A DNA stretch of 43,900 nucleotides, the filler included, from Jimgerdemannia flammicorona (taxonomy: Eukaryota): assembly GCA_003990765.1 (NCBI GenBank). It is 2 parts of 2 records of this genome, joined end to end, with 100 filler letters (N's around TTAATTAATTAA, not from the genome) between each part and the next. Parts side by side here need not be neighbours in the genome. Positions count along the whole stretch, not along the records: positions 22,005 to 43,900 come from RBNJ01001371.1; 1 more part is not named here. The stretch is one strand, 5' to 3'. This document shows positions 2,161 to 39,864 of this stretch, piece by piece. How positions within the stretch are numbered: the stretch's first letter is position 1; each line of letters opens with the position of its first letter. The translations under genes and the position numbers were made by a program. The notes under the pieces were generated by a model. It searched no databases. It saw only the letters and a list, made by a program, of their open reading frames with translations, and was not told the origin of the DNA.

Positions 2161-2196
<36 letters not shown>

Positions 2197-3710: not shown

Positions 3711-3714
3711 TAAG

Positions 3715-17057: not shown

Positions 17058-20000
17058 CTATGACGTAGCTCCGTCAGCAACCACACCTGTCGCCGCCGAT
17101 TGCCCCTCTGTAACGGCACGACTTCCCAAAAGCTGCAAAAGCACCTTGATTTGTTCTCGCTGCTCCGCCACCGTCTGCTGCGTCTGGTCCAGTGCCTCCG
17201 CCCTCATCTTCAATTCCCCCTTCAACACCCTAACTTCCTCAGGCTCCAATCCGGCCTCCACCTCGCGCTCCTTCTCCCAATACTTGATAGTATCCGGATC
17301 TGCGCCGTAAAAGATGAACTCGGGGAACCAATGCGGGTTTCTTCGTTCGAACGGTAGCAGCATGGTGCGCTCAATCTCGACGATGACCTGGGCGAGCTCG
17401 CGCAGCCATCGACGCTTGCCCTGCTCGCGAGCCATGTTGATAACGTCGCTGAGGATGGCGATGAGCACGTTGAGCATCATGATGACAGTGATGAAGGAGA
17501 AGGCAATCTTGATAATGTCTACCAATGGGTCGCCGTCCCATGGCGAGATCGAACTGTAGTCCCCGGTCAGAAATAGGTAAGTCGATTTCAGTGACTCATC
17601 AAATCGCACGAACTTGTTCACCGTGTCCATTGGTTGCTGAAGCGTTATGCTGATGCTATTGCCGATGAAACCCGTGAGGGGCGCGGGGGGAGGGATGACT
17701 TGACCGCGAAGATAGATGAAGAGGCCGTTCGCAAAGGCTATGAAGCAGTGATGGCAGTTTGAGTGAGTCGTTTATGGACAACAGGAAGGTTTCCCGAAAT
17801 TATTTATCGAATGTCTGATTCACTTACCGAGGACCAGCAGCGCCAAAATCATCAGGAAAGTTCCCACCTGTTTAAGAAGCTCCCACAAAATGTCCACGTA
17901 TGTGCCAATGGCACGGAACACTCTTAGCTGGAGCAACGTGTGGACCCACACCAGAATGACCGTGAGAGACAGCACCCAATTCTGCTGCGGAAGGTTCGGA
18001 TTCTGGATAGTTGGCACTGCCGACGCGATCGTGAGCCCGATCGTCAGCAAATCAAACCAATTATACCACGACCTAACGTACCGCAGTCGCTCCGATATCG
18101 CCTGCATAATCTCATGACACAAATTCGCTACAGAAAACAGCACGACGATAACCATAAGCGCTAACGCCGTCTGCGGGTACGCTCCCACAGGGTCAGATAC
18201 CATGACCGCTGCGGCGAAGAAAGCAGAGCTATTGACGAGATGCGGAATCATACGTAACCATATCCATCGTGTCCTGGCGAAGGTTCGCCACTTGAACATG
18301 ATGGTTGCCTCCATCATGGGCAGATCAAAGATATCGTCGCTATCAAACAGGTAATCGACGACAGCGGTAAAGGGACTGCGCGGGTGGATCCAGCTGTCGC
18401 GGTAGGTGAGGTTGACATAGCTACCGAAATGGGGGAGCGGGTTAACGCACAGCACCGTTGAATCCCCCCGCAGCGGGAAAAGGCCCGTCAAGTCCAGATC
18501 CGGGGGCTGGAACACTTCGCAAAGGTACCGCCGCACCAGGAACAAGCGCCACGCCCACTCGGAGTTGACGTCAATCAGGCACGCTGCAGGTGAAAGCGAC
18601 GTCATTTCCTGGCCCGAGATGTACTTGGTTGCAACGCGGCTGAGATCGTCCGCGGCAGTGAGAGTGAAAGGGGATGCCACACAGGCGGCCGTGTGGAGGA
18701 AGGTAAGCGCGACCTTTGGGGAACCCACGCAGAGAAGGTTCCAGCCGGCTGTCACGGAGCGCAGGTAGGCAGGACGGGTGGTCATGGATCGGAGGAAGTA
18801 GGGGAGCAGGATCTTGGCCTGTGGGCTCGAGCTCGAGGACAGTTTTTTGCTGGTGTCGGCGGACATGGGGAAGTCGGAGTGGGCCATGGGTGAGGTGCTG
18901 ATGTACAGATCGTTGGATTGCAGGAGCTCGAGGATGAAATTCACACCTTGGTCGAAGACCCGCTTGTGCGCTGAGGTGTACGCGGTCGAGTCGGCGATGT
19001 AGCGGTCGATGCCAATTAGCATGTTGAAGTGCACGATACCCAGAACCCGGATGATGGGATACTCCTTGACGCACTCCGTGATCCTCACCTGGCAGCCGTG
19101 AAGGAGGGTGTCAAAGAGGGGCAAACCGGCGATCGTGGAACACGCCGCGGTGGACTGGAGGAGATGAACAAAGGTCTCAAATGTCCTCAGTGCTGTCTTA
19201 TACACGGACGTCGTCGTTAAATGCAGTGGAACATCCTCCACAATGCGGTTCGCACCATGCTGCCGAACGATCTGAATACGACTAATCTTCCTCTTCTTGG
19301 GCGATATAAACGCGTCAACGGGACCTTGCGCATCCCCTTCTTCATACATGACGTTAACATCTCCTCCAGCAATGATCTGCGCGTACTCAAGCACGGCAGT
19401 CCTGTCGTCGTCGACGCGCCACAACTGGAAGTAGGTCTTGTCGGCGACGAAGAAGTGATTGGGACCGTCGAGGAATTTGACCTTGAATATACATTTGGTG
19501 GAGTCGGTGCACCATCCCAAGGGGAGGTCGAATATGACCTCGCCGCCGTACAGCAGATTGATCCGCCAAGACTCGTGCTCGCCGTCGTTCACCATCACCT
19601 CTAGCGAGCGCGTGCCGTCTTCGGAGTAAACGACCGTCTTCTCGGTTCGGCTTTCGGTCTCATGCGAGAACCAGCGTTGCATAACGTTTCCGTGAGTAGT
19701 TGGGATCTCGTCGCTGGGTGACAGGGGGGTAAATCAAATTGAATGGGGAGCGTGATTTGCGTGAAAAATGGGTATTAGAAAATCTTAAAAATACATACCC
19801 TTCCTTCATGAGCTTTGGCTCGGTGTAATCTTCTGTTGGATTAATCGCCTCATCCAAGGGTGATATCGCTTCCAACGCCCATGTTGTACCTTGCCGAAGT
19901 ATGATGCACCAATACTCATCGCTCCGAAATACTCCCTCAATGTTCTGCATCGGAAGGTTCAAGTGAACCTGTGGATCTTCATTACTGTAAAAGTTCCATC

Positions 20001-21193
20001 GGTAGAGTTGCGTCGACGGGGGGTAGTGGCCGACCCCGAGGGTCATGGTGATGCAACTGTCATTATGCGTGAAGGCGAAGTACTTGAGATGCGGCGTAAT
20101 CCTCTCCCTCTCACCCACCTTTACGGATGTCAGCTCGACCAGATTTTCCAGCAGGATGACACGGATGTAGTACGCCTTCGTCTCAGCGTCGATGCCAAAC
20201 GTCGCCAACATCCTGTTTCCGCGCGACAGTGCATAATCGATGGGCCGGAAATTGATTGGCATGAGCAGCTCGGCCATATGGAGGGAATGCAGGCTGGCGA
20301 AGTTGTCGCGGTCGATAGCGTTGGTGCTGTAGTACTTCTCGGTGAGCCTCCAAGAAGCGCGACGGAGATATAGAGATTTTGGGACGTCGTTGGCATATCG
20401 GTGAATTATGTTTTGTATGTGCGAATCGTATACGAGGATGAGGGCCTTGTCGCTGTCGGATATGACGAGGTTTTCGATGTCGCCCTGATCATCGTATGCG
20501 AACCACGCCTTGTTGGATTGCAAGTTGGAGAGGGCGATGTGCACCACGTTACGGCGCCCGTCGTCGAGGACCGTGTGCGTGACGGCCCCGTGATGGAGAC
20601 TGGAACTTTTGGAAACGCCGTAGATGACGTAGCTACCGCAGTTGGAGATCGCGAGCGCACCAAGGTAGCTGCTATGCGTGTTGACGGAGACGGTGGTTTG
20701 GAAGAGCTTCGAGTATCGGAAGTCAGGCTCAAATCCCACCGTCCACCATACAATTGTCATGGTTGGGTGGTGACTTGCGCCGTGGAAGGTTACGAGTCGG
20801 TGGCCGTCGGTCGATGGTTCGGCTCTTAGCATGGGTGGAAGGCTGGGTGATGAAAAAAGAATGGGAGATAGTGTTGGCGGTGGCATGGGTATGCGAATTG
20901 GAGACGCGATAAAAAGCCAATGAAGCATGGAAACCGTACTCATTTTCCCCGTTTTCGTCGATGTTTGTGATTTTATGTTTTTTAAATACATCGCTCGAAT
21001 TTTCCATCTGCACCACCCATGTTTCGCGTTTAGGTTTGGTGATGACGGGTTCGGTTGTGTCGACTTCAATCAACCGAACGCTGCTAGGAGACGTCATGCC
21101 TTTGCGGAAAGTTGGTTGAGACAGCTCGAGAGGGCTAGTTCTGGCAGAGCGGGAGAGATATGAGCTAGAAAATAATTGAAGGAACTTTGACAT
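17058..21193 (-). CDS. TRP-like cation channel with a long N-terminal beta-rich (propeller-like) region, ~1281 aa (exons 21193-20940, 20824-19799, 19713-17828, 17737-17058)
   Basis: Exons sum to 3846 nt with in-phase GT-AG introns. Channel motifs: IFDLPMMEATIMFKW, SWYNWFDL, LRVFRAIGTYV, pore LKSTYLFLTGD, S6 IMMLNVLIAILS and TRP-box-like WLRELAQVIVEIE, followed by a coiled-coil-like tail. The start could instead be Met 21097, and the intron-1 acceptor is the least certain. Confidence 0.85.
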
Positions 21194-21904: not shown

Positions 21905-22004
21905 NNNNNNNNNNNNNNNNNNNNNNNNNNNNNNNNNNNNNNNNNNNNTTAATTAATTAANNNNNNNNNNNNNNNNNNNNNNNNNNNNNNNNNNNNNNNN
22001 NNNN
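21905..22004. other. Artificial 100-bp assembly spacer N44-TTAATTAATTAA-N44
   Basis: Symmetric N runs around a 12-mer that has stops in all six frames, a common contig-joining linker. Confidence 0.95.
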
Positions 22005-23079
22005 TTTTATAGTCACTTGGACTCCTTTATTCCACTAGTCTATAGAATTACACTATCCATGTTTCTCATCGATTACCCTAGAACAACAATGTACCCATCT
22101 CTCCAATATTTAAAAATAATACAAGGAAGGGCCCTTCAGCCTACACCTTCTTTCCACCTCACCCCCTTCTCTCTAAGTATGAGGTGTTCCTGACTCCTCT
22201 GGACAATGTCCAATACCTTCCTCATGGCATCCAACTGGTGCCTCTTCCCCTGATACCACCACTCTTGTACCACTTCCAAGAGCAATCCCTTCCACCACTC
22301 CACCAATTCTCCAATTCCCATCCAAGGATCTCTCTCGAACACCCATTACCAGTGCACTGCCATCAGCACCCAGATGCCAATAATCCGACCCAGGCCTCCC
22401 CAGATGTCCCCAATTTCTCCCACCAGTCGACGTTTCATCACCCGACAAGTGGGGCCCCCTGCCTGCTCACTCTCTACTCCCCAATAACCTTCTAATGTCT
22501 GCCAAAATCCTTCAACCCCTGGACAATCTGCCAGAATATGCTCTGGTGTCTGCACTACTCCCCCATCCAGCTCACAACACCACTCACACTCCTTTACACC
22601 TCCCTCCACCATCCACCCCATCCTGTACTCCAGCATGACATTCCTCTGCAAAAATCGCCACCATACTACCCAGAACTTAGGCGGGGCTATCTTGAGTAGA
22701 GAGGTCCCCCAAACCCAAATCCGGCCCCACTCCCACTCTTCTCCAAACCCAGCCTTCTGCCAACCAACTGGCCACCTCTCAAGTGGTCCCATCCATATCC
22801 ACTCCATTGCCCCAGACAAAGAATATTCTGCCAACAGGTGGCCACCAATACGAATTATACCAAATTGCTACCATTGCTGTTCTGGGTTCTCCTCTTCACT
22901 GCCAGGCTCTGGGCCCATAAGCCCCATTGCTAACCAAGCTTCTACAATACCCCACCAGAATCCCCAATAACACAACCTGCCAACCATTCCTACCTGGAGC
23001 AAACCTTGCATATCCTTCCAAATCTCACTCTGGGGGCAGAACCTAACTTCTCAATTATCCATAGCCAGTTTGCTCTAAT

Positions 23080-25113
23080 TGTAAGAGGGTTACTTTTTGG
23101 GGTAACCGTTACGTAGTTCTGGAAGGGTTTTCTGGAAGTTCTGGATATTCTGGAAGATTGTTTTCTTATGGTCAAGATCAATTTTGTATGGAGTACGTCC
23201 TCTACGCTTATTGATTTCAAGATTGGGTTGACATCTCAACCAAAGTCCTTTTTTCGGACTAGTTCTGGATGTTCAGGATTTTCTGTATTTCAGGAAGTTC
23301 AAGAAACTAAGACCAGCTTAGTTGAATTGGCGTATCACTGCAGACAATACCCAATTAGGAAATTTCGTGACAGGGTTAGGAGTATGACCTAACAGGGAGC
23401 GGATTTACTTAAGAGTGGTTTGTGGGTTATGGAATAGGTTTATTTGCTATTCATGATATTGCTATACTAGGAGTATTTGGGTGAAGGGGTATTGTGGGGA
23501 AGTGCTCAGGAGTTGTGTTCAGATTGTTCAAGTCTGAGATTCCGAGGTCTGGGGGAGGGGGTATTTATACTAGTGAGGGGCTATCTGGACTATGCTGAAT
23601 ATGGATGTAGCACTAAGTGCCTTGCTGAGTCAGAATACAGTCACGTAGTACAAGTGTGATCTGATATGTCAAGAGATTGTCTGACTGCTGAGTCAGTTCA
23701 CAGTCACGTCGTACAAGGCTAATCTATCTATACTATGACTGCTAGACTATTTATAGGTTTAGGCACTATCTGGGTAGTCTTCGATGACATCACCATCGAT
23801 TGCATCATCTCTGATGAAGTAGTCATCTAGGAAGAGTGGTTTGCGGATTACTTCTTCTTGTTGGCTGAGGTAGTAATACATTGGGACTTCGTCTCCATCC
23901 CACAGGATAGCATTGTCTGTCTTGTAGGCTGGATAAGGTGTTGGTGGGCGAAGGATGGGTGTATTGTCTTCGCTTTCATTGGATTTGCTGTCTGCGTACC
24001 TTTTATAGGTTACAGCACTATGAGTCACGGGGTTGTAGTAAGCTGGCGGCTGTGGTTCATGTTGCTCATACTCAGGTGGTGGAGTGGTTGGTTCAATCTC
24101 GAGGGTTGTCTGGAGGTACAGGTTGTGTTCTCCAGTCTCTTCATTGTAGTTGAAGTAGTCAGGGGTGAATGCGGGTTAGTATTCGTGCCAGTGGTCATTG
24201 TCCCAATAAGTCTCGTATGCAGTTATGAACTGTTGCAAGTTCATCGGCAAGGTTGGCGGAGTGATCAGGGTTGGCAGGGATCCTTGGCTGGAGGTCATGT
24301 TGGTGTCAGAGGGGTCATTGTCTTCTGCTTCATCTTCGTCGAAGTTGATTATATCATAGACGTCCTTTATGGTGTATCTGACTTGAGGCATTTGCAGGAT
24401 ATGGTCATCAGGGTACGGGAAGGTTCTGTCTGTAGTTTCGACATACTCGAGGTACTTGTGGTTGAGTTCTTGTATCATGTCATCGATTTGGCCATAGGAC
24501 AGGGTAGCAACCATTTCGCTGGTAGTAACTCGGAGGCAGGGAATAAAGGTGTTGTACTCATAGAAGAGTTCTCGATGTTTGTGAGCGATGAGCTTCTGGT
24601 GTTGAGACATCTGGGTAATGTCTGTATCATGGTGGTGTTCGACCATGTCTTCCAGGAGGCGGCCGATCTGGTAGTAGCTTGAGATTTGTCCTATTCGGTG
24701 GGCCTCACTAAGTATATTCAGGGCATTCCATCGGGCTTCCACGAAGTAGAGGGGTGCCAGGCTATGGATATTCATGAGGGGCAGAGGGGGTGTGGCTCGG
24801 TTGACAATGGCATTCCAAATGTCAGTGTGGATGCGGTTGTAGATCTCAGTGGTCATGTTTGTGTGTTTGGAAGTTGTGGTTGTTGTTTGTTTTGGTTCTC
24901 TGATTCGACGCGTCTTGGTGCTCAGTATATATGCATTTGGTCCTGATTGGTAAGGTTCCATTTGTGTAGATCTTGTGTTCTGTGACTTTGTATTGACTCA
25001 GCTTTGTGTGCTGTGACTTCGGTTTGACTCAGCTTCATGATCAAGCAGATGATTTCCAGATTTGTTTGGAGGGTGACGTGTAATTTTGGTGGCTTGGAGG
25101 TTGTGCACTTACA
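23080..25113 (-). repeat. 3' LTR (2034 bp)
   Basis: Direct repeat of 31624-33657 at a constant offset of 8544. Preceded on the minus strand by the PPT. Confidence 0.97.
23759..24856 (-). pseudogene. LTR-encoded accessory ORF, 3' LTR copy (365 codons, one premature TAA at 24178-24176)
   Basis: ORFs 24176..24961 and 23759..24028 share one frame, and the stop is CAA (Gln) in the other LTR. The ATG at 24961 is absent from the other copy, so the shared start is Met 24856 (MTTEIYNRI). Confidence 0.8.
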
Positions 25114-25114
25114 A

Positions 25115-25127
25115 CTCTCCCCTTCTT
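25115..25127 (-). other. Polypurine tract
   Basis: AAGAAGGGGAGAG immediately before the TG of the 3' LTR. Confidence 0.9.
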
Positions 25128-25449
25128 AGCTTTTGATGTCCTCATTGGGGCCTTCTAATTTGTTCTAGTATTGTTACACTGTTTGGGAGGTCAAAAGTCC
25201 AGTAAGGTCCATTTTCTCAGAAAGTGGTATGCTTGTAGTACAGTTGCCTAACGTGTTGGATTCACATGTTAAAGGGTCATGTGTTCATTGCCATGCACCA
25301 GAAGTGATTCTGACGTCATTCACTGCTGGAGAATTTCCTCTAAGGAATCTTCTTAAATGTCTATGCCTCGTTTCCCACCAGTGGTATGGGGAGAATAGGC
25401 TTGCTTTCAGTTTTGCTATTTTTCCAGAGGATTGGTATTCTTGTCTTAT

Positions 25450-28400
25450 TTTGCTGGGTTCATGATTTGGTTTGTGATAGTTATAATGTTCAGGAGGGTA
25501 ATATATAGCATGTATGGATAGGTGCAGAGTATTTGGTTATAGTTGTTCAAAGAATCATATTCCTGAACTAAGTCGGTAGCATTCTGGAGATTGGTTTTGG
25601 GTTCCCAGGTTGCATCGTGGATTGGGTAACCTTTCCATTTGATAAGGTACTCAGGATGGTTCTTGTTGCCATGTTTGTTGAGGATTTGTTCAACTTTGTA
25701 TTCTTCTTGGTCATTTATAATGACAGGTGCAGGTGGTTTGGTAGTCCGATTTGAAAATAGCTCATCATCATTATCATTGTATCACTTGAGACATTGAACA
25801 TTAAAGACTGGGTGAATCTTAATGGTGTCCAGTAGCGCCAGTTTGTAGGAGGTTGGAGAGACTTGTGCGATGACTTCAAATGGTCCAATGAACTTGCTGT
25901 TCAGCTTTGTAGATGGTCTGTGCTTGAGGTTGTCAACTTGGTATCCTCTGATGTCTAGTAGAACTTTTTCTCCAATATCAAAAGTTTCTTCTTGGTGGTG
26001 TTGGTTAACATACTGTGACTGTTGTTCTTGAGCTCGTGATAAATTCTCAATTGCGATCTGGCTTAGATTGTGCATTCGGAGTAGGAATTCTTCAACTGCT
26101 TCAACTGTGGAGGGTTCTTCAGTGGTTTGGATAAGTGTCAAAGGGGTGTTCGGGTTTTGTCCAGTATTAACGAAGAATGGGGTCATTCCAAGAGAGGCTT
26201 GCTTGCTGTTGTTGTAGGCAAACTCGACTGCGGTGAGATGTTCATACCAATCATCCTGTCTGTAGAAGACATAGTTCCTTAGCATTTGTTCCAGAGTTTG
26301 GTTCATTCATTCGGTTTGGCCATCGGTTTCAGAGTGAAAGGCTGTGGATAGTGCAAGTTTTGTTCCAAGGTGCGCATGGAGGGCTTTCCAAAAGTGGCTG
26401 GTGAATTTCGGATCTTGGTCACTAACAATGATCTTGGGAAGACCATGATAGCAGAAGATGTTGTCAAACAAGAGTATGGCTATGTCTGGTGCTGTTGAAG
26501 TAGTGGTAGTAGGCACAAAGTAGGCTTGTTTGCTGAGGTAGTCCACAAAGACAACAATTGCATCTTTCTCGTTCTTGGTTCAGGGTAGTTGTACAATGAA
26601 GTCCATAGAGATTTGTTCCCAATTTGCGGATGGTACTGGAATAGGATGAAGTAAGCTGGGTTTTGCTAGTGTTGAAGACTTGTTTCGTTGGCAGGCATCA
26701 CAGGAAGTGATGTAGGTCTTGAGCTGATCTGCCATGTGGGGCCAATAGAAGTTTTGGGAGATAACTTCGTAACATTTATCAAATCCTAAATGTCCAGCTA
26801 TAGGGGCATCATGACATTCGAATAGGATAGTCCTTTGGAGGTCTCGGTTGTTTGGAACATACAATCTGTCCTTGTAGTAGATAGCATTGTCCTTGAGTTG
26901 GTATTGATTGTACTGGGTATGCTTGTTGGTATCATCATTGTTCAGGATTTCTTGGAGTGCTTGAGCTTCTTTATCATCTACACATGCTGCGATGATTTGT
27001 TCCATGATAGTGTTGGTAACCAAGGTCAGAGTTTGGATAACCTCTTCGATTGGTGGTCTGGAGATTGCATCGGCAACAATATTTTCCTTGCTAGGGCGGT
27101 ACTGGATTTCATAGTCAAAGTTGGTGAGGACTTTCATCCATCTAGCTTGCTTTCGAGAAAGAGTAGCCTGTGTCTTGATGTTGACTAATGACTTGTGGTC
27201 AGTCAATACAGTGAAGTGTGCTCCTTCTAGATATGGTCACCATTTGATCAGAGTGTCTACAATGGCTAGCATTTCCTTTTTGTGAGTTGTGTAGTTGATT
27301 TCGGCATCATTGAACTTGCGGGAGTGATAGGCCACAGGGTGTCCTTCTTGCATGAGCACTGCTCCAAGAGCTAGGTCAGAGGCATCAGTAGTGACTTCAT
27401 ATGGTAGGGCAGAATTTGCTGCTTGAAGTACTGGTGTGGTTATCAGGGCATCTTTCAGTGCTTGAAAGGCGGTATCTTGTTCGGGTCTCCAATTTACAAG
27501 ATTGTTGAAGTCTTTCTCTTGTTTCATGGTCCAGGGTTGTTCTTGTTTCTTGCTGTGCTTGGTCATTTGGGTGAGGGCAGTAGCAATTTTAGCAAAGTTG
27601 GCAACAAATCACCTGTAATAATTTGCTAATCCCAGGAATGACTGGAGGTCTTTCAGCTTCTTCAGTCTGGGCCAATCTTTGATTGCAGAGATTTTGCTGG
27701 GGTCCACTTTGATTCCTTTTGGAGTGATAATGTGTCCAAGGAATTGAATTTCTTTCAGGAGAAATTCGCACTTGCTGAGTTTTGCAAAGAGTCTGTTTTC
27801 ATGGAGTTTCAGTAGTACTAGTTCAAGGTGTTCAAGATGTTCTTCCAGGGTTTTGCTGAAGACTAGGATGTCATCAATGTAGACAACAACGAATTTGTCC
27901 AGGTATGGATGCAGAATGGTATTCATCAGTGTCTGGAAGGTTGCTGGAGCATTAGTTAAGCCGAAAGGCATAACCAGGAACTCAAAGTGTCCATAGCGAG
28001 TTCGGAAGGCTGTCTTGTAGATGTCTTCTTCTTTGATGGCAATTTGCCAGTAACCATTTCGCAGGTCAAAAGAGCTCATGAATTGTGAGTTGGTGAGCCT
28101 ATCGAATATTTCATCAATCCTCGGTAGTGGGCAACAGTTCTTGATGGTCTGCTCATTGAGATCATGGTAGTCAATACACATTTGCAGGTCTCCTCCTTTC
28201 TTGACAACAAAGAGGACTGGTGCACCATAGGGTGATATGCTAGGTCTGATGAATCCTTGTTCTAGGAGTTCATCGATTTCCTTCTTAAGTACATCAATTT
28301 CTCTTGGAGATATGTGGTAGATTGACTTGAAGGCTGGTTTGGCATCTGGGATAGTCTTGATAGCATGGTCTACTGCTCGTTTGGGTGGTAGGCCTTTCAG

Positions 28401-31400
28401 GAGTTTCTTTGGGAATATGTCTCAGAATTTCTGGAGTAGTGGTCTGATATGGCTGTCAACTTTGGAAAAATCTTCTTCAGAGTTCTTGGGTTCTCCTTTG
28501 GATGGTCGGATGGAGATGGCGAAGAGAGGGCATTTCTTGGCCAATTTCTTGAGTTGTAGCTTGTTGATGTGGGTGATCTTTGGTTCAGGGTCACTAGAGT
28601 TGAGTGGGTCCTTTTCGCCTTGTAGTTTGAAGTTGTGGCGTCCTTTCTTGATGGTCAGAGAATGGTTTACCCAATCGATCATGGGGTTCTCTTGTTTCAA
28701 CCATGGAGTTCCAAGGATGATTTCATTGTCAGGAAGTGGTACGATTTGGAGGGTAACATGTACTCGGTAGTTGCCAATTCGGAAGGGTAGATTGCAGACT
28801 TCTTTGCTAATAACATGTGAGGTTCCATCAGCTGTAGCAACTGCTTGAGTTTGCTGTACTGGGGAGGTGAAGACCTTGAGTCTGTTTGCTGTCTCTTCAT
28901 TAATGAAGTTGCCTGAGGCACCACTGTCTATCATAATCTTGACAGGTGCTCTGTTGACAAAAGCTTTAAGGGTGAGCAATTTGTCTGATCCAATTGTGGT
29001 GATTTCGGTTGTAGGAGCTTTCCTTCTATTGGTTCTTCTTTGAGCCAGTTCATTGACACAAGAGAAGCAATCATCGATCATTTGGGAAGAGTACATTCCA
29101 ATGCTATGAGGGCATCGGTCACTTGGTACATATCCATCTTCGATCTTCTTGTAGAATTGTTCTTCTTTGCTCATAGTAGGTTGGGCTGGGGCCTTGTTTG
29201 ATGAGCCAAATCCTTTGGATCCTCGGATGGTGGGCAGTAGTTCAGGGACTTCCTTGACTGTCAGGGTTGACTCAATTTTTTCGAATAGGATCTGGGCGAT
29301 GCAGAAACCAATAGGGATCTTGAAGGGTGTCCAACTGTGGTTTCGAATAAGGAAAATAATTTCGCCTGTATAATCCTCGTCAATGACTCCTCCTTCTACT
29401 GAGAGTCCTTTCAATGCTAGGCTGCTGCGACAGCATATTCTTCCAACATGTCCTTCAGGGATTTGGATACTGATTCCTGTGTAGACTTGTTTGACTTCTC
29501 AGTTAGAAACTGTAGCTTCTTTGGCTGCATATAGGTCATATCCAGCTGCTTTTTGACTTCCTTTGGTTGGGGCCTTAGCAGTTTGTCTTAACTTGACAAA
29601 GTCTAGTGTTCTGGTGGTCAGGTTGTTGAGGTGGTGAAGAGTGGTAACAGTTGCTCATGTTGCTGTTCGGGGTTTTCAGTTGGAGCAGGCACTGGCCATA
29701 TGTCCTGTCTTTCGGCAGTAGAAGCATGCTCTGCTTCTTTGAAGTTCATTTCTTTCACCTTCAGTAAGTTTCTTGAAGGTACTTGGCTGGGTGGGTTCAT
29801 GATTTCTGGGTGTCCAAGAGGTGGATGTGGAGGGAGCTCGAGATGTTTTATGCTTGGGTTCTTCTTTCTTGGTCCAAGTCTTTTCCTTGTTGTTGAATTG
29901 TCTTCGGGGCAGAATTGGTCTGGCTGTTAGGATTCGCTTGACCATGGTCTTGATTCTTGCCAGGCACTATTGTTGGTGATCACAACCAACTGGGCAGCCT
30001 TGTTCTCGGATTTTTCTAGTAAGCCATTCAGGCAGTGCATCAAATAAATGGTCTGCTCTTGTACCATTTCGTGCTTCATCATTGGCAATACAACAGTGTT
30101 CAGGAGTGACTCGAGTTTTGTACAGAAGGTTTCGAATTCTTCTTTGCCATGTACATCAAATTTGAGGTTATGGAGTTTTACTCGAGATTCAGCAATCATG
30201 GTTTCGCTGCGATATTGAGCAATCATGAGTTGTTTGAGTCCAGGGGCTGTAGGATGGGCTCCATATCCTGGGGCATTGTTTGCTACATTCTGAGCAACTA
30301 CTGCAGGTCAGATATCCCATGTGAGGGGTTTTTCAGGAAGGGTTCGCCACCATTCTTTGGCAGGTCCTTGGAAGAATGTAACAACTCAGCAGACATAGGC
30401 TGTAGTTGTAGCAAAGAGTTGTTCCAGGGTGTGGTCTTGATTGTTTGTCAGAACATGGTCAGCAACTCGCTCATTAGTCCATTGATTGGCTTCGAAGTTG
30501 GTGTCAACTACACTAATGAAGCTTTGGACTTCTTGTGCAGTACCATTGAAGGTAGGTAGGCTCAGATTTTTGGTAGGTCAGATCTGTTCAGCTAAGGCAG
30601 TGATAGTTGCTGCCATTATAGCTACTTGGGCTGTGAGGTCCAGAATCTGTTGGTTCGCCATGTTGATTGCTGGAGGCGGTTGGACTGCTGGTAGTGGTGT
30701 TACTGGTACTACTTGAGGTACTGGTGCAGAGTGTGATGGGGTCCTTTGGGTCTGTGTAAGTTGCTGGAGTAGTAGTTGTGGATCTGGAGTGAGGGCTTGA
30801 TAGATAGCTATTTGTTGCTGTGTAGGTGTATTCTGTCCTGATGGACATGTGTCTCCTTCAGTAGTGTATCCGGGATCGAATTCGGTGAGATACTCCTCCT
30901 CTTCTTTAGTTTGGTCCCCGTGTAATTGGGTTTGCTCGGCGTCAAAGTAGACAGAATCAGTTGTATATCTGATTTCAGATGGACTTAATTCAAAGTCAAG
31001 TTCAGGTTCAGTATTGGTTTCAGATTCAGGTAGGGTTGTAGCAGGGCCTGCTTCAGATTCGGGGTCAGGTAGTTGATGAAGGGTTTCTCTTGCCTCTTCC
31101 TTAAGAATATGGCAGGCCTTGCTGTTCTGGAATCTGTAGTATAAGGCAGTCTTGGTCCTGGTATGGTGATAGTCGGTAGAGTTGAGCCACTTGGCTACAG
31201 AGGCTTGGGCTTCGTGAGGAACTAAGGCTAGGAAGACTGCTGCTGGTTGTCCTAGGTCGCTCGGATTTGTGGAGCTGACAAAACTCTTATTGAGAAGAGT
31301 AAAGAAGGCTTCAATAAGACCTTCTTCATCTTGACTTGCTGGGTGTAGTGCAAGGAGTTCGGTGAATAGGGTTTCACCTATTTGCTGATTTAACTGAAGT

Positions 31401-31516
31401 ATTTCTTTCTTGGAATGAAGTTTGTCCCACTTATTGCAGGTGTGGAGGTCAAATTGTCCTTGTACGTCAGGTTCAATTCTCTCCAGATTGTCAGATAGTT
31501 CAGAATAAATTCCAGT
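25450..31516 (-). pseudogene. gag-dUTPase-pol polyprotein of the chromovirus, inactivated mostly by CGA>TGA stops
   Basis: CFYCRKTGHMASAC knuckle (~29730), dUTPase (~29606-29199), protease IDSGA (~28930), RT YIDD (~27875), RNase H TDAS/KEMLAI, integrase HHCC, SMDFI, SDQD and TDGQTE, and chromodomain EYKVEQIL...YLIKWKGY...TWEP (~25710-25555). Everything from the knuckle onward is in one frame. One frameshift lies in gag near 29940. Confidence 0.93.
29199..29606 (-). other. dut: Trimeric dUTPase domain between Gag and protease
   Basis: All five motifs are present: AAGYDL, RSSLA, GVIDEDYTGEI, IAQI and RGSKGFGSS. One in-frame TGA at ~29500. Confidence 0.93.
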
Positions 31517-31608
31517 TCAGAGGTTGGGCTTTATACCAACTTGTAGGAATTCTTGGAAGGGTTTGTAGTGGGGTGAGGAAGCATCTTGAAGTGGAATTGG
31601 ATTGTAAA

Positions 31609-31620
31609 CCGCTGCTACCA
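31609..31620 (-). other. Primer binding site, initiator tRNA-Met type
   Basis: TGGTAGCAGCGG starts 3 nt inside the 5' LTR boundary. TGGTAGC is the pattern complementary to the 3' ends of fungal and animal tRNAi-Met. Confidence 0.8.
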
Positions 31621-32105
31621 AGTTGTAAGAGGGTTACTTTTTGGGGTAACCATTACGTAGTTCTGGAAGGGTTTTCTGGAAGTTCTGGATATTCTGGAAG
31701 ACCGTTTTCTTATGGTCAAGATCAATTTCGTATGGAGTACGTCCTCTACGCTTATTGATTTCAAGATTGAGTTGACGTCTCAACCAAAGTCCTTTTTTTG
31801 GACTAGTTCTGGATGTTCAGGATTTTCCGTATTTCAGGAAGTTCAAGAAACTAAGACCAGCTTAGTTGAATTGGCGTATCGCTGCAGACAATACCCAATT
31901 AGGAAATTTCGTGACAGGGTTAGGAGTAGGACCTAACAGGAAGCGGATTTACTTAAGAGTGGTTTGTGGGTTATGGAATAGGTTTATTTGTTATTCATGA
32001 TATTGCTATACTAGAAGTATTTGTGTGAAGGGGTATTGTGGGGAAGTGCTCAGGAGTTGTGTTCGGATTGTTCAAGTCTGAGATTCCGAGGTCTGGGGGA
32101 GGGGG

Positions 32106-32239
32106 TATTTATACTAGTGAGGGGCTATCTGGACTATGCTGAATATGGATGTAGCACTAAGTGCCTTACTGAGTCAGAATGCAGTCACATAGTACAAGTG
32201 TGATCTGATATGTCAAGAGATTGTCTAACTGCTGAGTCA
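32106..32239 (-). promoter_or_regulatory. Putative main LTR promoter: two TGASTCA (AP-1/Gcn4-type) sites + TATA
   Basis: TGAGTCA at 32233-32239 and 32170-32176 and TATAAATA at 32113-32106, all conserved in the other LTR. Confidence 0.6.
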
Positions 32240-32302
32240 GTTCACAGTCACGTCGTACAAGGCTAATCTATCTATACTATGACTGCTAGACTATTTATAG
32301 AT

Positions 32303-33400
32303 TTAGGTACTATCTGGGTAGTCTTCGATGACATCACCATTGATTGCATCATCTCTGATACAGTAGTCGTCTAGGAAGAGTGGTTTGCGGATTACTTCTC
32401 CTTGTTGGCTGAGGTAGTAATACATTGGGACTTCATCTCTATCCCACAGGATAGCATCGTCTGTCTCGTAGGCTGGATAAGATGTTGGTGGGCGAAGGAT
32501 GAGTGTATTGTCTTCACTTTCATCGAATTCGCTATCTGTATAACTTCTATAGGTTACAGCACTATGAGTCACGGGGTTGTAGTAAGCTGGCGGCTGTGGT
32601 TCATGTCGCTCGTACTCAGGTGGTAGAGTGGTTGGTTCAATCTTGAGGGTTGTCTGGAGGTACAGGTTGTGTTCTCCGGTCTCTTCATTGTAGTTGAAGT
32701 AGTCGGGGGTGAATGCGGGTTGGTATTCGTGCCAGTGGTCATTGTCCCAATAAGTCTCATATGCAGTTATGAACTGTTGCAAGTTCATCGGCAAGGTTGG
32801 CGGAGTGATCAGGGTTGGCAGAGATCCTTGGCTAGAGGTCATGTTGGTGTCAGAGGGGTCATTGTCTTCTGCTTCATCTTCGTCGAAGTTGATTATATCA
32901 TTGACATCCTTCATGGCATATCCGACTTGAGGCATTTGCAGGATATGGTCATCAGGGTACGGGAAGGTTCTGTCTGTGGTTTCGACATACTCGAGGTACT
33001 TGTGGTTGAGTTCTTGTATCATGTCATCGATTTGGCCATAGGACAGGGTAGCAACCATTTCGCTGGTAGTAACTCGGAAGCAGGGAATAAAGGTGTTGTA
33101 CTCATAGAAGAGTTCTCGATGTTTGCGAGCGATGAGCTTCTGGTGTTGAGACATCTGGGTAATGTCTGTATCATGGTGGTGTTTGACCATGTCTTCCAGG
33201 AGGCGGCCGATCTGGTAGTAGCTTGAGATTTGTCCGATTCGGTGGACCTTGCTAAGCATGTTCAGGGCGTTCCATCAGGCTTCCACGAAGTAGAGGGGTG
33301 CCAGGCTATGGATATTCATGAGGGACAGAGGGGGTGTGGCTCGGTTGACAATGGCATTCCAAATGTCAGCGCAGATGCGGTTGTAGATCTCAGTGGTCAT
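32303..33400 (-). pseudogene. LTR-encoded accessory ORF, 5' LTR copy (365 codons, one premature TGA at 33277-33275)
   Basis: ORF 32303..33259 extends in frame to Met 33400 across a TGA that is CGA (Arg) in the other LTR. Confidence 0.8.
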
Positions 33401-33469
33401 GTTTGTGTGTTTGGAAGTTGTGGTTGTTGTTTGTTTTGGTTCTCTGATTCAACGCATCTTGGTGCTCGG

Positions 33470-33575
33470 TATATATGCATTTGGTCCTGATTGGTAAGGT
33501 TCTGTTTGTGTAGATCTTGTGTTCCGTGACTTCATATTGACTCAGCTTTGTGCGCTGTGACTTCAGTTTGACTCA
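33470..33575 (-). promoter_or_regulatory. Putative second promoter driving the LTR ORF
   Basis: TGACTCA at 33569-33575 and 33538-33544, CCAAT at 33494-33490 and TATATA at 33475-33470, with the ATG at 33400. All are present in both LTRs. Confidence 0.45.
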
Positions 33576-36500
33576 GCTTCGTGATCAAGCAGGTGATTTC
33601 CAGATTTGTTCGGAGGGTGACGTGTAATTTTGGTGGCTTGGAGGTTGTGCGCTTACACTAATCCTCCCCTCCTAGTTCCGCCATTCGATAACCCCACCAG
33701 CCCCGAAGTACCTTCAGCTGCCTTCTAAAGTCCACCAGCCCCAGCCCTCCATCTGCCTTTGGTGTTACCATTATCTCCCAACTAATCTGTGATCTCCTTC
33801 TCTGTCATAGCCATCCTTCGACCACCTTCTTCAGTTTCTGTACCACCCACCCTAGAAAGTCCAGGTGATACCTCAAGTACCACAGCTTCGGCAACCAATA
33901 TACATTCAAGACTACAATCCTCCCAACCAAGGAGAATCCCCTCCCAGACCAGCCCACCAAGGCATTCTCCCACTTTTGTATCAATCCACACCACCACTCT
34001 TTTGGCAACACCATCTCATATACTGAGAGCCAGATATCCAAATATCAAACTGCCTCCCCAGAGCCAACTAAATGTCCAAAATGTCCATGCTCCCCCAAGC
34101 CTGCTCCAAGCTCCATGGTCTCGCACTTGCCCCAGTTCAATTTCACCCCTGCCAGCATCAAATACTGTCCTACCCCTTCCTGCAAGCTCACCACATCTTC
34201 CACACTGCCTAACTCTACCACCATATCATCTGCAAATGCCCCCAGCTTCCAGACCACCTCCCCCATCTTCAACCCAGTGAGCCTCCCCTTCAGCCATGCC
34301 AACAATGGCTCCAAGATAAAATATAAAGCAGGGGTGAGAGAGGATCCCCCTGTGGCACTCCTTGCTCTAAGGAAAACTCTGGGCCACTCCACCCATTCAT
34401 CAGCACTGCAGCCCAGCAACCTCGCACCAGACCCATCAGTTTTTGAGCCTCCCCCATGCCAAACCCGGCTTTCCATAGGACTGCCTCCAAGTAGTTCCAC
34501 CTCACCCTGTCATAAGCCTTTTCCTGGTCCAAAAACACCATTCTTCCATCTACTTGCTGGCTTCTACAACCTTCCAAAACATTTTGCACTCAGGCAGTGC
34601 TGTCTCGAATCTGTCTCCCCTTCACAAACCCTCGCTGTTCCTCACCAACCAATCTGCCAATCCATTGTTGCATTCTCCCTGCCAGAATCTTGGAGACCAA
34701 CTTCCTATCCACATTCAGTAACATGATGGGCCTCCAGTTCCGCCACACACATCTATCCCCTTTCTCCTTGTAGAGCAGAGAGACTAGTCCCAAGGAGCCA
34801 TTGCCTATCCAGCAGCCTTCCCCCAGTGTAAAGTTTGCCATTTCCACGAGCTATGCCCCAAACTTAGTTTGAAACTCCTTCCAGAACTCCCAGGGCAGTC
34901 CATCCTCCCCTGGTGACGAGCCCACCTGCACTTTCCTCAGAACCTCCAACACCTCTTCAAGGGTCACCCAACCCATTACAGTCCCACCAATGCAGGCTCT
35001 GCCACCACTGGCCAGCTGCCAACCAAATTGTTGTTATCCTCCAGCATCGCCTCTCCCTCTACTAGCCCTCCATCATCCTGCCATAGGGAGCACTATCGAC
35101 CAGAGATCTCCCCAAGCATATTGGCAATATCTGTCACCTCTGTTCCATCCTCTCGTAACACCGAAGCCCAGCTGTGCCGCACTCTCCTAGCCTTCAAGAT
35201 TCCAGATAAGTATTTGGTGGATCATTTCCCTTCTTCCAACCGCTTAGCTCACAATCTTGCCAGCAACCCATCCACCACCCTATCTTCTGCTGCCTTCAAA
35301 TCTGACTGCAACTCTGCTACCTCCTTGATCAATAGGGAGTGTCACTCCCCTGAGTTGTTCTCTCCTTCCAGAAGTTTTAGCCGCCAGTGTGGCCCCCACT
35401 CCACTCTTCTTTCTCTATCCTTCTGCTCCCTTCCAGCTACCTCTCCTACATCATACCAGTATGCACCTGCTAGATGTTTAAATTTCCCCCACCACTGTGC
35501 TATTGACTGGCCACTGTTCTTCCACCATGCTACTTCCTGTCTTGCAATTTTAACAAACTTTTCTCACTCCACCTGTCTCTAGAGTAGTGCCACATTAAGT
35601 CGCCATCTGCCTCTGCCACCACTGGTTGCCTGGAATCTCCCACACACCTACACACCCCAGTGATCCGACCAGGGACACCACCATACCTCTGATGAATCCA
35701 AAATATTACCCCAGCATTCTGCTACTAGGATCCAGTCAATCCTCGTCCTAACCAAATTCTCACCGATTGGATGCCACCTAGTAAATGGCCCTAACTTCTC
35801 ACCTTGACATTGTCATACTCCATCAACCAGTCCCATTTCCTTCTCAGCTTGAAGCCATCGCGAGTGCCCAGTGGATACTGCCACACCGACTCCACCATCT
35901 GACCTATCTAATGTCCTATCATGCACTATATTGAAGTCCCCTCCCAGAATGTCCAGCTCAATCTCATCTCGGCCTCCCCAATCCAGCCAACCTTCCACCC
36001 ATTTGTTTTGCTCCCTGCCAACTACTGGTATATACACAGAGCCAACCACCAATCCATCGCCAGCTCCTCCTTTCAATCTCCCCCAAACCAATCGATATCT
36101 CAACCTCCTTCAGCTCTCCTCTCTCCAAGCCAACCAAAATGGCCATCTGCTCATTCCACCCCATAATACCATACCATTCCTTGCCCCACTCCTCATAATC
36201 TTGCTCCCCATAGGCCCAAATGTCCTGCAGAAATATTGCATCATACTTCCTGTTCTTCAACCACCGAAACAAATGCCTTTGCTTCACTCCATCATGCAAA
36301 CCATTGACATTTAGTGATAATATATGTAGACTGTTCATCATCATGAATATAAATGTTAAAGCTCAGCTGGGGCCACCACCACCTTTTCGGCCCTACCACA
36401 GATTATCGCCTTCCATTCCTCACAGATAGCCCTCCAGATGTGGGCTCTATTCACACCACTACAGAAGGCATCCACTCACTCCGATACCATCTTCCTGATA

Positions 36501-39500
36501 TCAGCCATATGGTCCTCATCAACCTCATAACCTTCATCATCCAGAAGCACTGCCACCATTGCTGTTACCAACTTCAGCCCCTGCAATGCCACATTGTGAA
36601 ACCCTTGCCAGGCCTCCTGTGATCCATTAAATACATCCACTTCCTTGATATCCTCCTCCACAAGTTCCTCAAGCACTGTCTGATACATACCAGTCATCTG
36701 CTGTCATCACCATGGGCCCAGGAGTGGCTGGCCTTGGGGTCCTGCTCAGCTCCTGCAGTATCTCTCTATCCGCCGACACATCAGAAGCCACATCCACAGG
36801 TCATCCTCCCCAGTGCCTTTCTCCAGCCGAACTACTTTGCCTGCTTCTGGGCATTCCCAATGAACATTTGCCACTCTGGCCATGCGAACATTCTCCAACT
36901 GGGTCTCAGGTACCACCTCGATAATCTCCTCAAAGCCCCCTGTATTCGCCTCCTCCTTATCAGCCCACTTCCCCTTTACTGGTGCATGAGTAGAGTTCTT
37001 CACTCCTACTAGTTGCGAAAAGGACACCTCAGCCATCTCCACCTCTTCCATCTGATTTTTGGTCAACTCTTCTCTTTCCTTTTCCTTCTTTTCTGAGCCC
37101 TGAGGACTGTCTACAGGTGCTCCCAGTTTGCCCTTCACCACCTCTTCCTCCTCCCATCTGTCGGGATCCAGATCCAGTCCTTGGTGAACTCCTCCCATCT
37201 CCTCTTCCGCAATTCCTTCACAGCCTCTCTCTCTTCAAGGGCAACTAGCAATTCCTCCTCCTCCTGTTCAGAACCCTTCCTTCTCCACACTTTGCACTCC
37301 TGCCCTCTGACACGAATCACTTCTGGCCAGTCCCTCCATTGCCCTGTAGCCTCCTTGCCCTCCAGTCTCACCATCACCTCGCAATTGCCATTCCTCAGCT
37401 TGGTCCCCTCCCAAAACATGAATCCAAAGTCAACCATCTCGCCAAATGCCCCCAGTGCCTCCACCACCATTCCTTTGGTCTCCTGTCTCCCCAATGTTGG
37501 CAGCCCTTCAACCACCCAACACACTGCCTGCGGGTCCCACCTCAGGCACCTTGCTATGCCCACCTTGATGCTCTTGACTACCAGTCCTTTCTCCAGGGCC
37601 TTCACCATCTCCTCCTCCTCAACAAATCCTATCTCAACTGCCTCCGCTGATGGGATGAACTTCAGTGACTCTGCCCCTGCAATCTCCTCCCCTACTAGCT
37701 GTAAGACCTCTCTAGCAGACATCTCCAGTTCCAAAAAATTTGCAGAAATGGCCCATGTTGATACTGACTTGTGAAGAAGGGACACACCACCAGTTCACTA
37801 GAACCTGCTGCCATCATCACCTTCTTCTTGCTCTCCAACACTCCAGCAGTCACCCCAGCCACTGGTCCAGCCCCAGGAATTCCAGTCCCAGCCACACCAC
37901 TTCCGGACCCCTGGCCCCTGGCAGGCACCTGACCAGTCACCTGACCAGTCACCTGGCTGGTCACCTGACTCCTACCCCTGTCAACACTATGTCCCCCCTG
38001 CCCTGCCCCCATGGGCCTAGTAGCTGCCCTCCTGCCCCCCATCACCATGTGCCAACTCTCAATGCCAGCCTGCCTCCCCAGACCACCTGCTCTTCTAGCC
38101 TCTACACCAGCCCCTAGACCTCCACCAGCCCCAACCGTCACCACAAAACTTTTCAGGAGACCCAGACCAGGCCTCCTTCTCTCCAAATGCTCAGAGCTTG
38201 ATGAACCCTTGGTTGCCATCTGACAAAAACTCCACCGAAACAGATGAGACTTGTTGTATCTGTAGCTTGACTCCTGCTGCACCTTGTACACTAGAATAGA
38301 TGATGGGAAAACTTGAAAATGTGTTGCTTGTCATGAAAAGATGTCAGTGTGGCTTAGCTTTCTCTGAATGGTTCAAGCAAAAGGAGTCTGGCCTACAGCA
38401 CCAATCCTTGTGCACCCCAATCTACAGAAGCCATTCATCTTGTATACAGATGCTTCTAAAAATGGCCTCAGGGCAGTATAGTCCCAAGAAGGACCTGATC
38501 AACAGCACCATGTGATAGCTTATGCAAGCAGGGCTACCAACCAGCAGCAGATGAACTATGGTAGCACCAAACTGGAATGCCTTGCAGTCATATGGGCAGT
38601 TACCCTGTTCAAGCATTATCTCATTGGAAAGAGGTTCACCCTGATCACAGAACATACAGCCCTCAAATAGCTATTCAACCACAAGGAACCTGCCAGAATT
38701 CTAGCCTGATGGATCCTTATCCTTCAGGATTATAAAATCACCATCATTCACAGAGCAGGAAAAACCCATCACAATGTTGATGTACTTTTCCACCAGCCCC
38801 AATGAATCAGAGGAAGGGTGTCCTGAGGAACCACACCCTAAAGGAAGCTCCTCAGACTATCAAAGCACAAGAAGATCTCATCCGAAAAGAATATCAGAAA
38901 GCCCACCAAGGACAGACAAGCATAGAAGACAGGATTCAAAAACAATATCAACATTGGCCTCATCTCAGAACTCAAGTCTGAGACATTATTCAGAAATGTG
39001 ACATCTGCCAGAAGTACTAAGGAAAGAAGAACTATCAAGCCCCTCTGCAACCGATTCCCCCACTCACTCACATCTTTCAAAGATGGGGAGTAGATGTAAT
39101 TGGACCCCTACCAGTTATACCAAGAAGAAATAAATACATCCATGTATTTGTAGAGCATCTGACTAAGTGGCCTGAGGCTTTTCCAATGGAAATCGCAGAT
39201 GCTCTAACTATTGTAGGCCTCCTCTATGGACTCACACTCAGATATGGACCCCCAGAAGAACTTATCTCTGACTGAGGCACAGAATTCATCAATAACATAA
39301 TCCCAAGTTATGCCCAAATTCACAAGATCTACCTCAAAAGGACCACATCATACCACCCCCAGACCAATGGCATGACAGAAAGAATGAACCAGACCATCAA
39401 GAAAGGACTTGCCCAAGTCAACCCTACTAATTGGGACCTTTGCTTACCTGAGATCCTATGGGAAATTCAGAACACCCCTGCCACATCCACCAAACAAAAG

Positions 39501-39864
39501 CCATTCGAAATGATGTTTGCCAAGAGAACCAGAACTGCTGACCATGAGAATCTCAGAGACCTCCTCAAGAAGGCAGAACAGTTACGAAATCAAGCCCAAG
39601 GACAGATTATCAAAGCCCAGGAAAGACAAAAGAAGTACTATAACCAAAACCAGAAGGATCAGGAAATCAAGATTGGAGATCAAGTCCTAGTTTGGAGAAG
39701 CATAATTGGGACAAACTTTGCCACCAAACTAGAACCAAAATGAGAAGGACCTTATCTTGTACACAACATCAGAGGAACCAGCATCTATTTAAGAAGCATG
39801 GATGGATGAACCCTGAGAACACCAGTATACATCAATTGCCTCAAGATATACTTCTCCTCACACC

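Follow-up and report, generated by a model that had tools for sequence, protein, structure and literature searches.

A stretch of 43,900 nucleotides from the fungus Jimgerdemannia flammicorona (assembly GCA_003990765.1), which consists of two parts of the genome joined by 100 filler letters and is here called the window, contains on its minus strand one complete but degenerate Ty3/Gypsy chromovirus of the long terminal repeat (LTR) retrotransposon type. Each of the two LTRs carries the same open reading frame (ORF) of 365 codons. On balance, we favour the view that a high-copy Ty3/Gypsy chromovirus family of an Endogonales fungus has in this ORF a genuine accessory gene, which lies wholly inside the LTR, is under selection and probably has its own promoter. 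The family member present in the window is dead, but the founding lineages would have kept the protein under purifying selection. The LTRs and their ORF copies are located as follows.

31624-33657, minus strand: 5' LTR, 2034 bp, termini TGTAAG...CTTACA
23080-25113, minus strand: 3' LTR, 2034 bp, termini TGTAAG...CTTACA, 87 differences from the 5' LTR and no indels
32303-33400, minus strand: ORF copy of the 5' LTR, 365 codons plus stop, LTR positions 258-1355, TGA at codon 42 (33277-33275)
23759-24856, minus strand: ORF copy of the 3' LTR, 365 codons plus stop, LTR positions 258-1355, TAA at codon 227 (24178-24176)

A preliminary description, made from the sequence alone, had reported that both 2034-bp LTRs carry this sense-strand ORF (24856-23759 and 33400-32303), each copy with one different C>T nonsense change (CAA>TAA and CGA>TGA). 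The coordinates were confirmed and both changes verified. The two copies begin with MTTEIY and differ at 51 codons (53 base differences) without any indel. Codon 42 is TGA in the 5' LTR copy and CGA in the 3' LTR copy; codon 227 is TAA in the 3' LTR copy and CAA in the 5' LTR copy. Both stops are private to their own LTR copy. At codon 227 (position 24178) the letter giving CAA accounted for 429 of 442 depth units in run X1 (31 contigs), 71 of 75 in X2, 37.5 of 37.5 in X3 and 369 of 369 in X19. Of the two metagenome homologues described below, P0003 has Gln at codon 227 and P0004 has Arg at codon 42. Because both stops are private, we infer that the element was inserted with an open frame. The earlier claim to this effect is thus borne out by the sense codons in the other LTR, in P0003 and P0004 and, for codon 227, in all four contig runs. 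An ORF of such length would not be expected as a chance frame.

No further copy of the ORF was found in the internal region between the LTRs, and a search for paralogues within the window gave none; nor is there any similarity of the ORF to the element's own gag or pol. Fusion of the ORF to pol was ruled out by the different frame and the intervening stops. An open antisense frame (23831-24682, plus strand) was also considered as a gene and dismissed as a by-product, because the variable sites hit its first codon positions. According to arithmetic on the variant positions, the periodicity of these sites matches the frame of the minus-strand ORF and not that of the antisense frame.

Evidence for purifying selection was obtained from related sequences in other runs, most of which are labelled as soil metagenomes (one is a root metagenome, and two are coded organisms), all represented by contigs. 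In four runs, 4289, 477, 460 and 445 contigs, 80-99% alike, were aligned to the 3' LTR. Among the best-supported 40 of 604 variants, 24 are located inside the ORF; third codon positions account for 16 of these, first positions for seven and a second position for one (binomial p 9e-4). At 13 of the 24 sites the two window LTRs share a letter from which other copies deviate; 12 of the changes are synonymous and one is non-synonymous, compared with 33-37% synonymous changes expected for transitions (p 1e-5 to 5e-5). At the other 11 listed sites the 5' LTR already has the other letter (eight non-synonymous, three synonymous), and these changes either occurred on the branch of the dead copy itself or reflect repeated decay of CpG sites. 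The two window LTRs themselves differ by 19 synonymous and 34 non-synonymous changes (Fisher test against the family-level sites, p 3e-4). Since the LTR pair of one dead insertion is expected to decay neutrally, its divergence is uninformative on the family.

Among the 12 listed of 18 indels, the ORF contains one compensating pair (two of the 12) in a single contig; in the non-coding R-U5 part of the LTR, 1-nt deletions are common to many contigs. When neutral evolution was simulated to the identity level of P0003, the frame stayed open in 2 of 400 runs at kappa 2 and in 10 of 400 at kappa 10. The same simulation for P0004 (90% identity over 128 residues) left it open in 181 of 400 runs and so has no power. 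Very probably, the ORF is a genuine coding sequence under purifying selection at the level of the family. On the question raised in the preliminary description, whether the frame is retained by selection, the synonymous excess (12 of 13 listed sites) and P0003, which is open at 64% identity, point to retention.

The only relatives of the LTR ORF protein are the metagenome fragments P0003 and P0004, found among 1.84 billion representatives searched exhaustively and 5.8 billion clusters covered by two word-indexed searches. Over Pfam, the PDB, the Atlas and 15 billion proteins, no family emerged for it. The exhaustive search gave four matches, the near-length search P0003 only and the shorter-length search P0004 only. 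P0005 and P0006, repeat proteins aligned over 38-53 residues with E about 5e-5, were set aside as spurious. P0003 is a protein of 247 residues, 64% identical to residues 115-365, with an open frame, whole-codon gaps only and the same end. P0004 is 90% identical but covers residues 1-128 only. Conservation relative to P0003 is blockwise: residues 227-251 show one change in 25, and conservation is further seen in the blocks PDDHILQMPQV, LITPPTLP..LQQFIT and PPTPYPAYK and at the C-terminus, which is acidic-aromatic. Two PPxY motifs (PPEY at 259, PPAY at 269) were dropped as a functional clue, as they are not kept in P0003. A search for the DNA of relatives gave 74 and 339 pattern matches in metagenome_contigs, 134 in viral_contigs and 66 in genome_contigs, none of which was confirmed by tblastn.

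A 9.6-kb contig of run X19 with a depth of 369 matches only positions 24033-24208 (codons 217-275), the best-conserved part of the ORF, which includes the block at residues 227-251; over these 176 nt there are 30 differences. The contig differs from the window on both sides of this core match and may represent a more distant element or gene with the same core.

The predicted protein is acidic (pI 4.4), and its tail (residues 151-364) even more so (pI 4.05), with 11% Asp, 11% Pro and 9% Tyr. In Kyte-Doolittle windows of 19 residues the maximum mean is 0.86, and no transmembrane or hydrophobic segment was found. Residues 3-141 are predicted to be helical with low confidence. Hence, of the two-part protein proposed in the preliminary description, the composition of the acidic, Tyr/Pro-rich tail could be verified, and the helical N-terminal part of ~140 residues remains a low-confidence prediction. 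Neither ORF copy matched a Pfam family at E <= 0.01, and the best hit in a sequence-profile search of the PDB had an E-value of only 0.35. The Atlas yielded nothing usable for P0003 (own model with a predicted local distance difference test score, pLDDT, of 0.39) and, for P0004, nothing but clusters at 0.90-0.93 that were either unnamed or unrelated, recognition being under the bar. The model of residues 1-150 gave no match below E 0.66 and no template modelling (TM) score above 0.28 when compared with the PDB by Foldseek.

The codon use of the ORF resembles that of the element. Relative synonymous codon usage correlates at 0.75 with pol, at 0.30 with a host exon and at -0.04 with the long interspersed nuclear element (LINE)-like sequence in the window, and the sense strand is A/C-rich and G-poor, like that of gag-pol. 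The searched protein collection includes annotated proteins of Jimgerdemannia and Endogone, but annotated proteomes may lack genes masked as repeats. That a conserved host gene was captured recently is unlikely because of the absence of a cellular homologue in this collection, the pol-like codon use and the absence of a paralogue in the window. A match to such a gene, which according to the preliminary description would speak against an element-specific ORF, was not encountered in the 1.84 billion representatives and 5.8 billion clusters. The findings fit an old capture as well as an origin de novo inside the element.

The ORF is flanked by two similarly built promoter-like modules. A composite 20-nt motif, GTGACT-N6-TGACTCAG, occurs eight times in the 43.9-kb window, four times in each LTR and never outside them, compared with an expectation of 0.02; none of 100 shuffles reached eight. 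Its core TGA(C/G)TCA has 16 matches in the window, ten of them in the LTRs. The modules and associated signals are listed below.

33526-33576, minus strand: module A of the 5' LTR, two inverted motif copies at 33557-33576 and 33526-33545 (LTR 82-101 and 113-132)
24982-25032, minus strand: module A of the 3' LTR, motif copies at 25013-25032 and 24982-25001
33470-33475, minus strand: TATATA at LTR 183 (24931-24926 in the 3' LTR), 50 nt past module A and 75 nt before the ORF ATG
32169-32251, minus strand: module B of the 5' LTR, two direct motif copies at 32232-32251 and 32169-32188 (LTR 1407-1426 and 1470-1489)
23625-23707, minus strand: module B of the 3' LTR, motif copies at 23688-23707 and 23625-23644
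32108-32113, minus strand: TATAAA at LTR 1545, 55 nt past module B, presumed genomic-RNA promoter
32299-32294, minus strand: further TATAAA at LTR 1359, a consensus match
31983-31988, minus strand: AATAAA at LTR 1670, the only one in the LTR, presumed poly(A) signal defining R/U5

The spacing between motif and TATA box is similar in modules A and B (50 and 55 nt), and TATAAA at LTR 1545 and AATAAA at LTR 1670 are identical in both LTRs. We read the two modules as two like-built candidate promoters, one for the ORF and one for the genomic RNA. Since the ORF (LTR 258-1355) lies upstream of the canonical TATAAA/AATAAA pair, it would belong to U3, with the borders of U3, R and U5 set by motif. The final ~400 nt of the LTR are common to related contigs, whose sequences part from it upstream of about LTR 1640; this fits an end of U3 near LTR 1600. 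The position upstream of the main TATA box, claimed earlier, is thus correct for the TATAAA/AATAAA pair, and the assignment to U3 itself follows from consensus motifs only. A depth step of run X19, a run that may be RNA by conjecture only, at 23504 was considered as a transcript start below TATAAA and rejected as an alignment break, because the loose ends at 23465 and 23356 continue into diverged homologous sequence.

In three DNA runs the LTR is about 3-4x deeper than the internal sequence. This fits the suggestion in the preliminary description that the ORF is spread by solo LTRs, yet depth is not copy number, and the suggestion stands with this qualification.

Several other explanations have to be weighed. 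The same selected gene might lack a promoter of its own and be translated from the U3 of the 3' LTR on a genomic, subgenomic or spliced RNA, in which case module A would serve to enhance the main promoter. With its location between the polypurine tract (PPT) and the TATAAA/AATAAA pair, the ORF is contained in every full-length transcript, and expression from the 3' U3 is the standard retroviral solution, as exemplified by nef and spliced sag mRNAs. We nevertheless regard this explanation as somewhat unlikely: the ORF is situated about 6.5 kb past the gag start and in a frame different from pol, fungal introns are usually short and a polypyrimidine/AG acceptor before the ATG was not seen by eye. 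The TATATA box 75 nt before the ATG, with the motif pair and spacing of the main promoter, would be left unexplained. Module A could instead be the genomic promoter, which would give a very long R and make the ORF a leader cistron upstream of gag, not a U3 gene. The TATA-like box and upstream sites before the ORF would agree with this, as would the A at -3 of the ATG and, in the 3' LTR copy, the absence of an upstream ATG between TATATA and the ORF ATG. We consider such a leader cistron quite improbable, given that a canonical TATAAA with its own motif pair and, 125 nt further, the AATAAA are both located downstream of the ORF, and that the contigs sharing R-U5 diverge upstream of about LTR 1640, as expected for a U3 end there. 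An R of about 1.45 kb would also be far beyond the usual range of LTR elements.

It is improbable, too, that the ORF is a fragment of a captured host or foreign gene which resides passively in the LTR and owes its constraint to its earlier history or to host-level selection. LTR retrotransposons are described to capture ORFs (PMC5408684; PMC7264820), and the protein has no retroelement-like domain; against a passive passenger stand the lack of a homologue in the collection with annotated Jimgerdemannia and Endogone proteins, the codon use, which is like that of pol and not that of the host exon, the lack of a paralogue elsewhere in the window, and a synonymous bias among LTR copies whose depth is close to that of the first 200 nt of the LTR. 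Finally, a non-functional relic or chance frame under no selection would account for the two broken copies in the window and for an LTR-LTR divergence in the ORF (4.8%) that compares with 5.4% and 2.9% in non-coding parts. This we hold to be highly improbable in view of the two private stops, the 12 synonymous changes among the 13 listed family-level ones and the open frame of P0003 at 64% identity, an outcome seen in 2-10 of 400 neutral simulations.

The favoured reading of a selected and probably self-promoted accessory gene has to be held against a number of unfavourable points. A second full-length open copy of the ORF was not seen among the contigs and homologues; P0003 is limited to residues 115-365 and starts at an internal Met, and P0004 is limited to residues 1-128. 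The contigs, of about 150-400 nt, are too short to establish that each copy lies in an LTR, and the variant and indel counts represent the best-supported 40 of 604 and 12 of 18 entries, respectively. Promoters, transcription start sites and the poly(A) site are consensus matches only, the core TGA(C/G)TCA is what we take to be the consensus of basic leucine zipper (bZIP) factors of the AP-1/Gcn4 type, and expression of the ORF is deduced from such motifs, the source runs being all contigs with none recorded as RNA. In run X1, R-U5 is about 2x deeper than the ORF part, and relatives with a different U3, perhaps devoid of the ORF, would therefore be at least as common. AlphaFold did not provide a confident fold, with a pLDDT of 32 for the whole protein and, for residues 1-150, a six-helix arrangement with a pLDDT of 51 and a predicted TM score (pTM) of 0.44. 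Modelling of residues 1-150 followed by Foldseek, as advised in the preliminary description, hence permits no inference on the fold. As there is neither a Pfam, PDB or Atlas relative nor a confident fold, any activity proposed for the protein is a guess.

If the favoured reading of an accessory gene is correct, the 5' end of the LTR would most likely hold the promoter of the ORF, formed by a pair of GTGACT-N6-TGACTCAG sites and then, 75 nt ahead of the ATG, by the TATATA box. Transcription would stop at the single AATAAA of the LTR, giving an mRNA of about 1.45 kb from either LTR or from a solo LTR. Module B, with two of the same sites and then TATAAA, would start the genomic RNA downstream of the ORF, which therefore would be part of U3. 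With a promoter-like module of its own, the ORF need not depend on read-through of the genomic RNA as nef does. The product would be a soluble, very acidic protein with a helical N-terminal part of ~140 residues and a tail rich in Tyr, Pro, Asp and Glu that contains the conserved short blocks. We guess that it is an activator or host-factor adaptor that serves the element in trans, but the underlying assignment, a soluble helical domain with an acidic, aromatic and probably disordered tail acting in this manner, is tentative and by our estimate unlikely. The anti-silencing factor of the preliminary description finds no backing in homology or in a usable fold, and Argonaute-hook-like GW repeats were not seen in the protein by eye; such a role is neither supported nor excluded.

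A more far-reaching version would make each LTR a self-contained cassette of promoter, gene and poly(A) signal. The acidic protein would trans-activate or co-activate via the GTGACT-N6-TGACTCAG sites in both promoters, resulting in positive feedback with thousands of solo LTRs as dispersed sources. The spumaviral Tas protein, which acts in a feedback loop with two promoters, provides an analogue, but we rate this version as decidedly unlikely.

The remaining parts of the element are given in the following list.

33658-33662, minus strand: target-site duplication (TSD) ATTAG, 5 bp, other copy at 23079-23075, on both flanks of the element
31609-31620, minus strand: TGGTAGCAGCGG, resembling a primer-binding site (PBS), 3 nt past the 5' LTR, putative PBS by position
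25115-25127, minus strand: PPT AAGAAGGGGAGAG, ending 1 nt ahead of the 3' LTR
29676-31516, minus strand: gag region, pieces of 312 and 126 residues without Pfam match, interrupted by stops
29676-29966, minus strand: zf-CCHC of gag (Pfam)
25446-29498, minus strand: pol, a single frame interrupted by in-frame stops only
28422-29498, minus strand: dUTPase and aspartic protease (Pfam), dUTPase with E 5e-24 and N-terminal of the protease
27609-28421, minus strand: reverse transcriptase (Pfam RVT_1)
27237-27608 and 26580-27236, minus strand: RNase H (Pfam RT_RNaseH_2)
26307-27236, minus strand, with SH3 at 25782-26306: integrase (Pfam Integrase_H2C2, rve, SH3_Tf2-1)
25446-25781, minus strand: chromodomain (Pfam Chromo, 1.3e-16)

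The order of Pfam domains on the minus strand is zf-CCHC, dUTPase, RVP_2, RVT_1, RT_RNaseH_2, Integrase_H2C2, rve, SH3_Tf2-1 and Chromo. Both by its LTRs, TSD, PBS and PPT and by its pol order and CCHC motif, the element is a Ty3/Gypsy chromovirus (Metaviridae). One contig of run X2 crosses the LTR end into the same PBS-like TGGTAGCAGCGG sequence. The LTRs align without gaps and are 95.7% identical (87 differences in 2034 positions). Transitions account for 81 of the 87 differences, and 44 of these 81 are at CpG, which points to cytosine methylation and deamination of the repeat and not to the CpA-biased pattern of repeat-induced point mutation. The N-terminal pieces of gag are in one frame, the CCHC knuckle and the whole of pol in another, with the switch just ahead of the knuckle (29927-29966, minus strand). 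As the LTR pair is free of indels, this switch may be a native frameshift site and not a product of decay.

The chromovirus is nested in a LINE-like element with RVT_1 and Exo_endo_phos domains (22346-22867 and 33663-38330, both minus strand), the sense strand of which is strongly G-rich (plus-strand GC skew about -0.45). A second copy of the LINE is found at the left end of the window (876-3794, minus strand); positions 1039-1219 and 33728-33908 are 75% identical. Beside the left copy there is a direct repeat of ~830 bp with 78% identity (4605-5434 and 5844-6673, 1239 bp from start to start). Host genes are located at 17820-19733, 19660-21069 and 15360-16262, all on the minus strand. An exon for an Ion_trans protein is 99% identical to an annotated Jimgerdemannia flammicorona protein and 57% to one from Endogone sp., and a gene for a short-chain dehydrogenase is interrupted by ~85 nt that resemble a short intron. 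Two runs of 44 N are present at 21905-21948 and 21961-22004. To the right, a weak rve_3 integrase match below the Pfam cut-off (39276-39743, plus strand; 2.5e-4) suggests another decayed element.

We read the LTR ORF as analogous, not homologous, to the sag gene of mouse mammary tumour virus (MMTV). Sag is a type II membrane glycoprotein, whereas the LTR ORF protein has no membrane anchor (maximum hydropathy 0.86, pI 4.4). There is no sequence relation (no Pfam family at E <= 0.01; best PDB E-value 0.35), the host is a fungus, the chromovirus is without env here, and expression is only deduced. In MMTV, U3 contains the sag/naf ORF together with a promoter, P2, from which sag is expressed independently of P1 (PMC9412291). 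An ORF of about 320-365 codons is wholly inside U3 in MMTV and would be so here by motif, and in both cases it is duplicated in both LTRs; where MMTV has its second U3 promoter P2, two like-built candidate modules flank the ORF of the chromovirus.

Lentiviral nef and spumaviral bel/bet are accessory genes, too. Located at the genome's 3' end, they reach into the U3 of the 3' LTR but start in the internal region, whereas here the whole gene and its presumed promoter are inside the LTR, downstream of the PPT. An env-like third ORF would be expected between pol and the 3' LTR; the position inside the LTR, downstream of the PPT, and the absence of a hydrophobic segment uphold the earlier statement that the protein is not env-like.

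Additional ORFs (aORFs) in plant LTR retrotransposons are extra, often family-less ORFs beside gag-pol with mostly unknown function (PMC7264820), and captured ORFs occur in LTR elements of bdelloid rotifers (PMC5408684). The LTR ORF resembles both in being a family-less ORF additional to gag-pol (PMC7264820; PMC5408684), but plant aORFs are in the internal region and both ORF copies described here are inside LTRs. The plant review defines LTRs as flanking a gene-bearing internal region, and a phrase search of this review for ORFs within LTRs gave no match (PMC7264820). Chromoviruses with a dUTPase are described as PosPlaTy3 families of Postia placenta and as elements of Phanerochaete and Tuber (PMC2864245). 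PosPlaTy3-3 is, like the present element, a chromodomain Ty3/Gypsy element with the dUTPase in Pol N-terminal of the protease (PMC2864245). The host of the present element, in contrast to the hosts of those in Postia, Phanerochaete and Tuber, is a member of the Mucoromycota. The dUTPase N-terminal of the protease (28422-29498, minus strand) is thus an observation from a Mucoromycota chromovirus, such domains being named, in the text available from that source, for Postia, Phanerochaete and Tuber only (PMC2864245). The legend of its Figure 3 names an 'add. ORF' of unknown function, the position of which is not given in the same text (PMC2864245). A literature search for a fungal LTR-borne ORF, with subscription literature outside its scope, returned mostly MMTV papers and, among the entries listed, none describing such a case. 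Within this scope it agrees with the statement in the preliminary description that no U3-encoded protein is known to have been characterised in fungal Ty3/Gypsy elements.

Retrotransposon LTRs are treated as non-coding control regions and are masked by annotation pipelines. If the LTR gene is indeed selected, a solo LTR would be a complete transcription unit left at every recombined insertion, and not just a stray promoter. As the host genome is reported to consist of more than 77% repeats (PMC10386755), the gene dosage of one transposable element factor may be very large. The LTR ORF would be a non-retroviral parallel to MMTV sag, including the LTR with two promoters as predicted by motif, and suggests that the shift of an accessory gene into U3 may be a recurrent solution in LTR elements. 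In early-diverging fungi, where the control of transposable elements has been little studied, this family-less protein, with its short blocks of strong conservation, would be a defined candidate for a role in transcription or in escape from silencing. Should the LTR even prove to be a feedback cassette, it would be the first case of a selected regulatory gene embedded in the LTR of a retrotransposon that is not a retrovirus.

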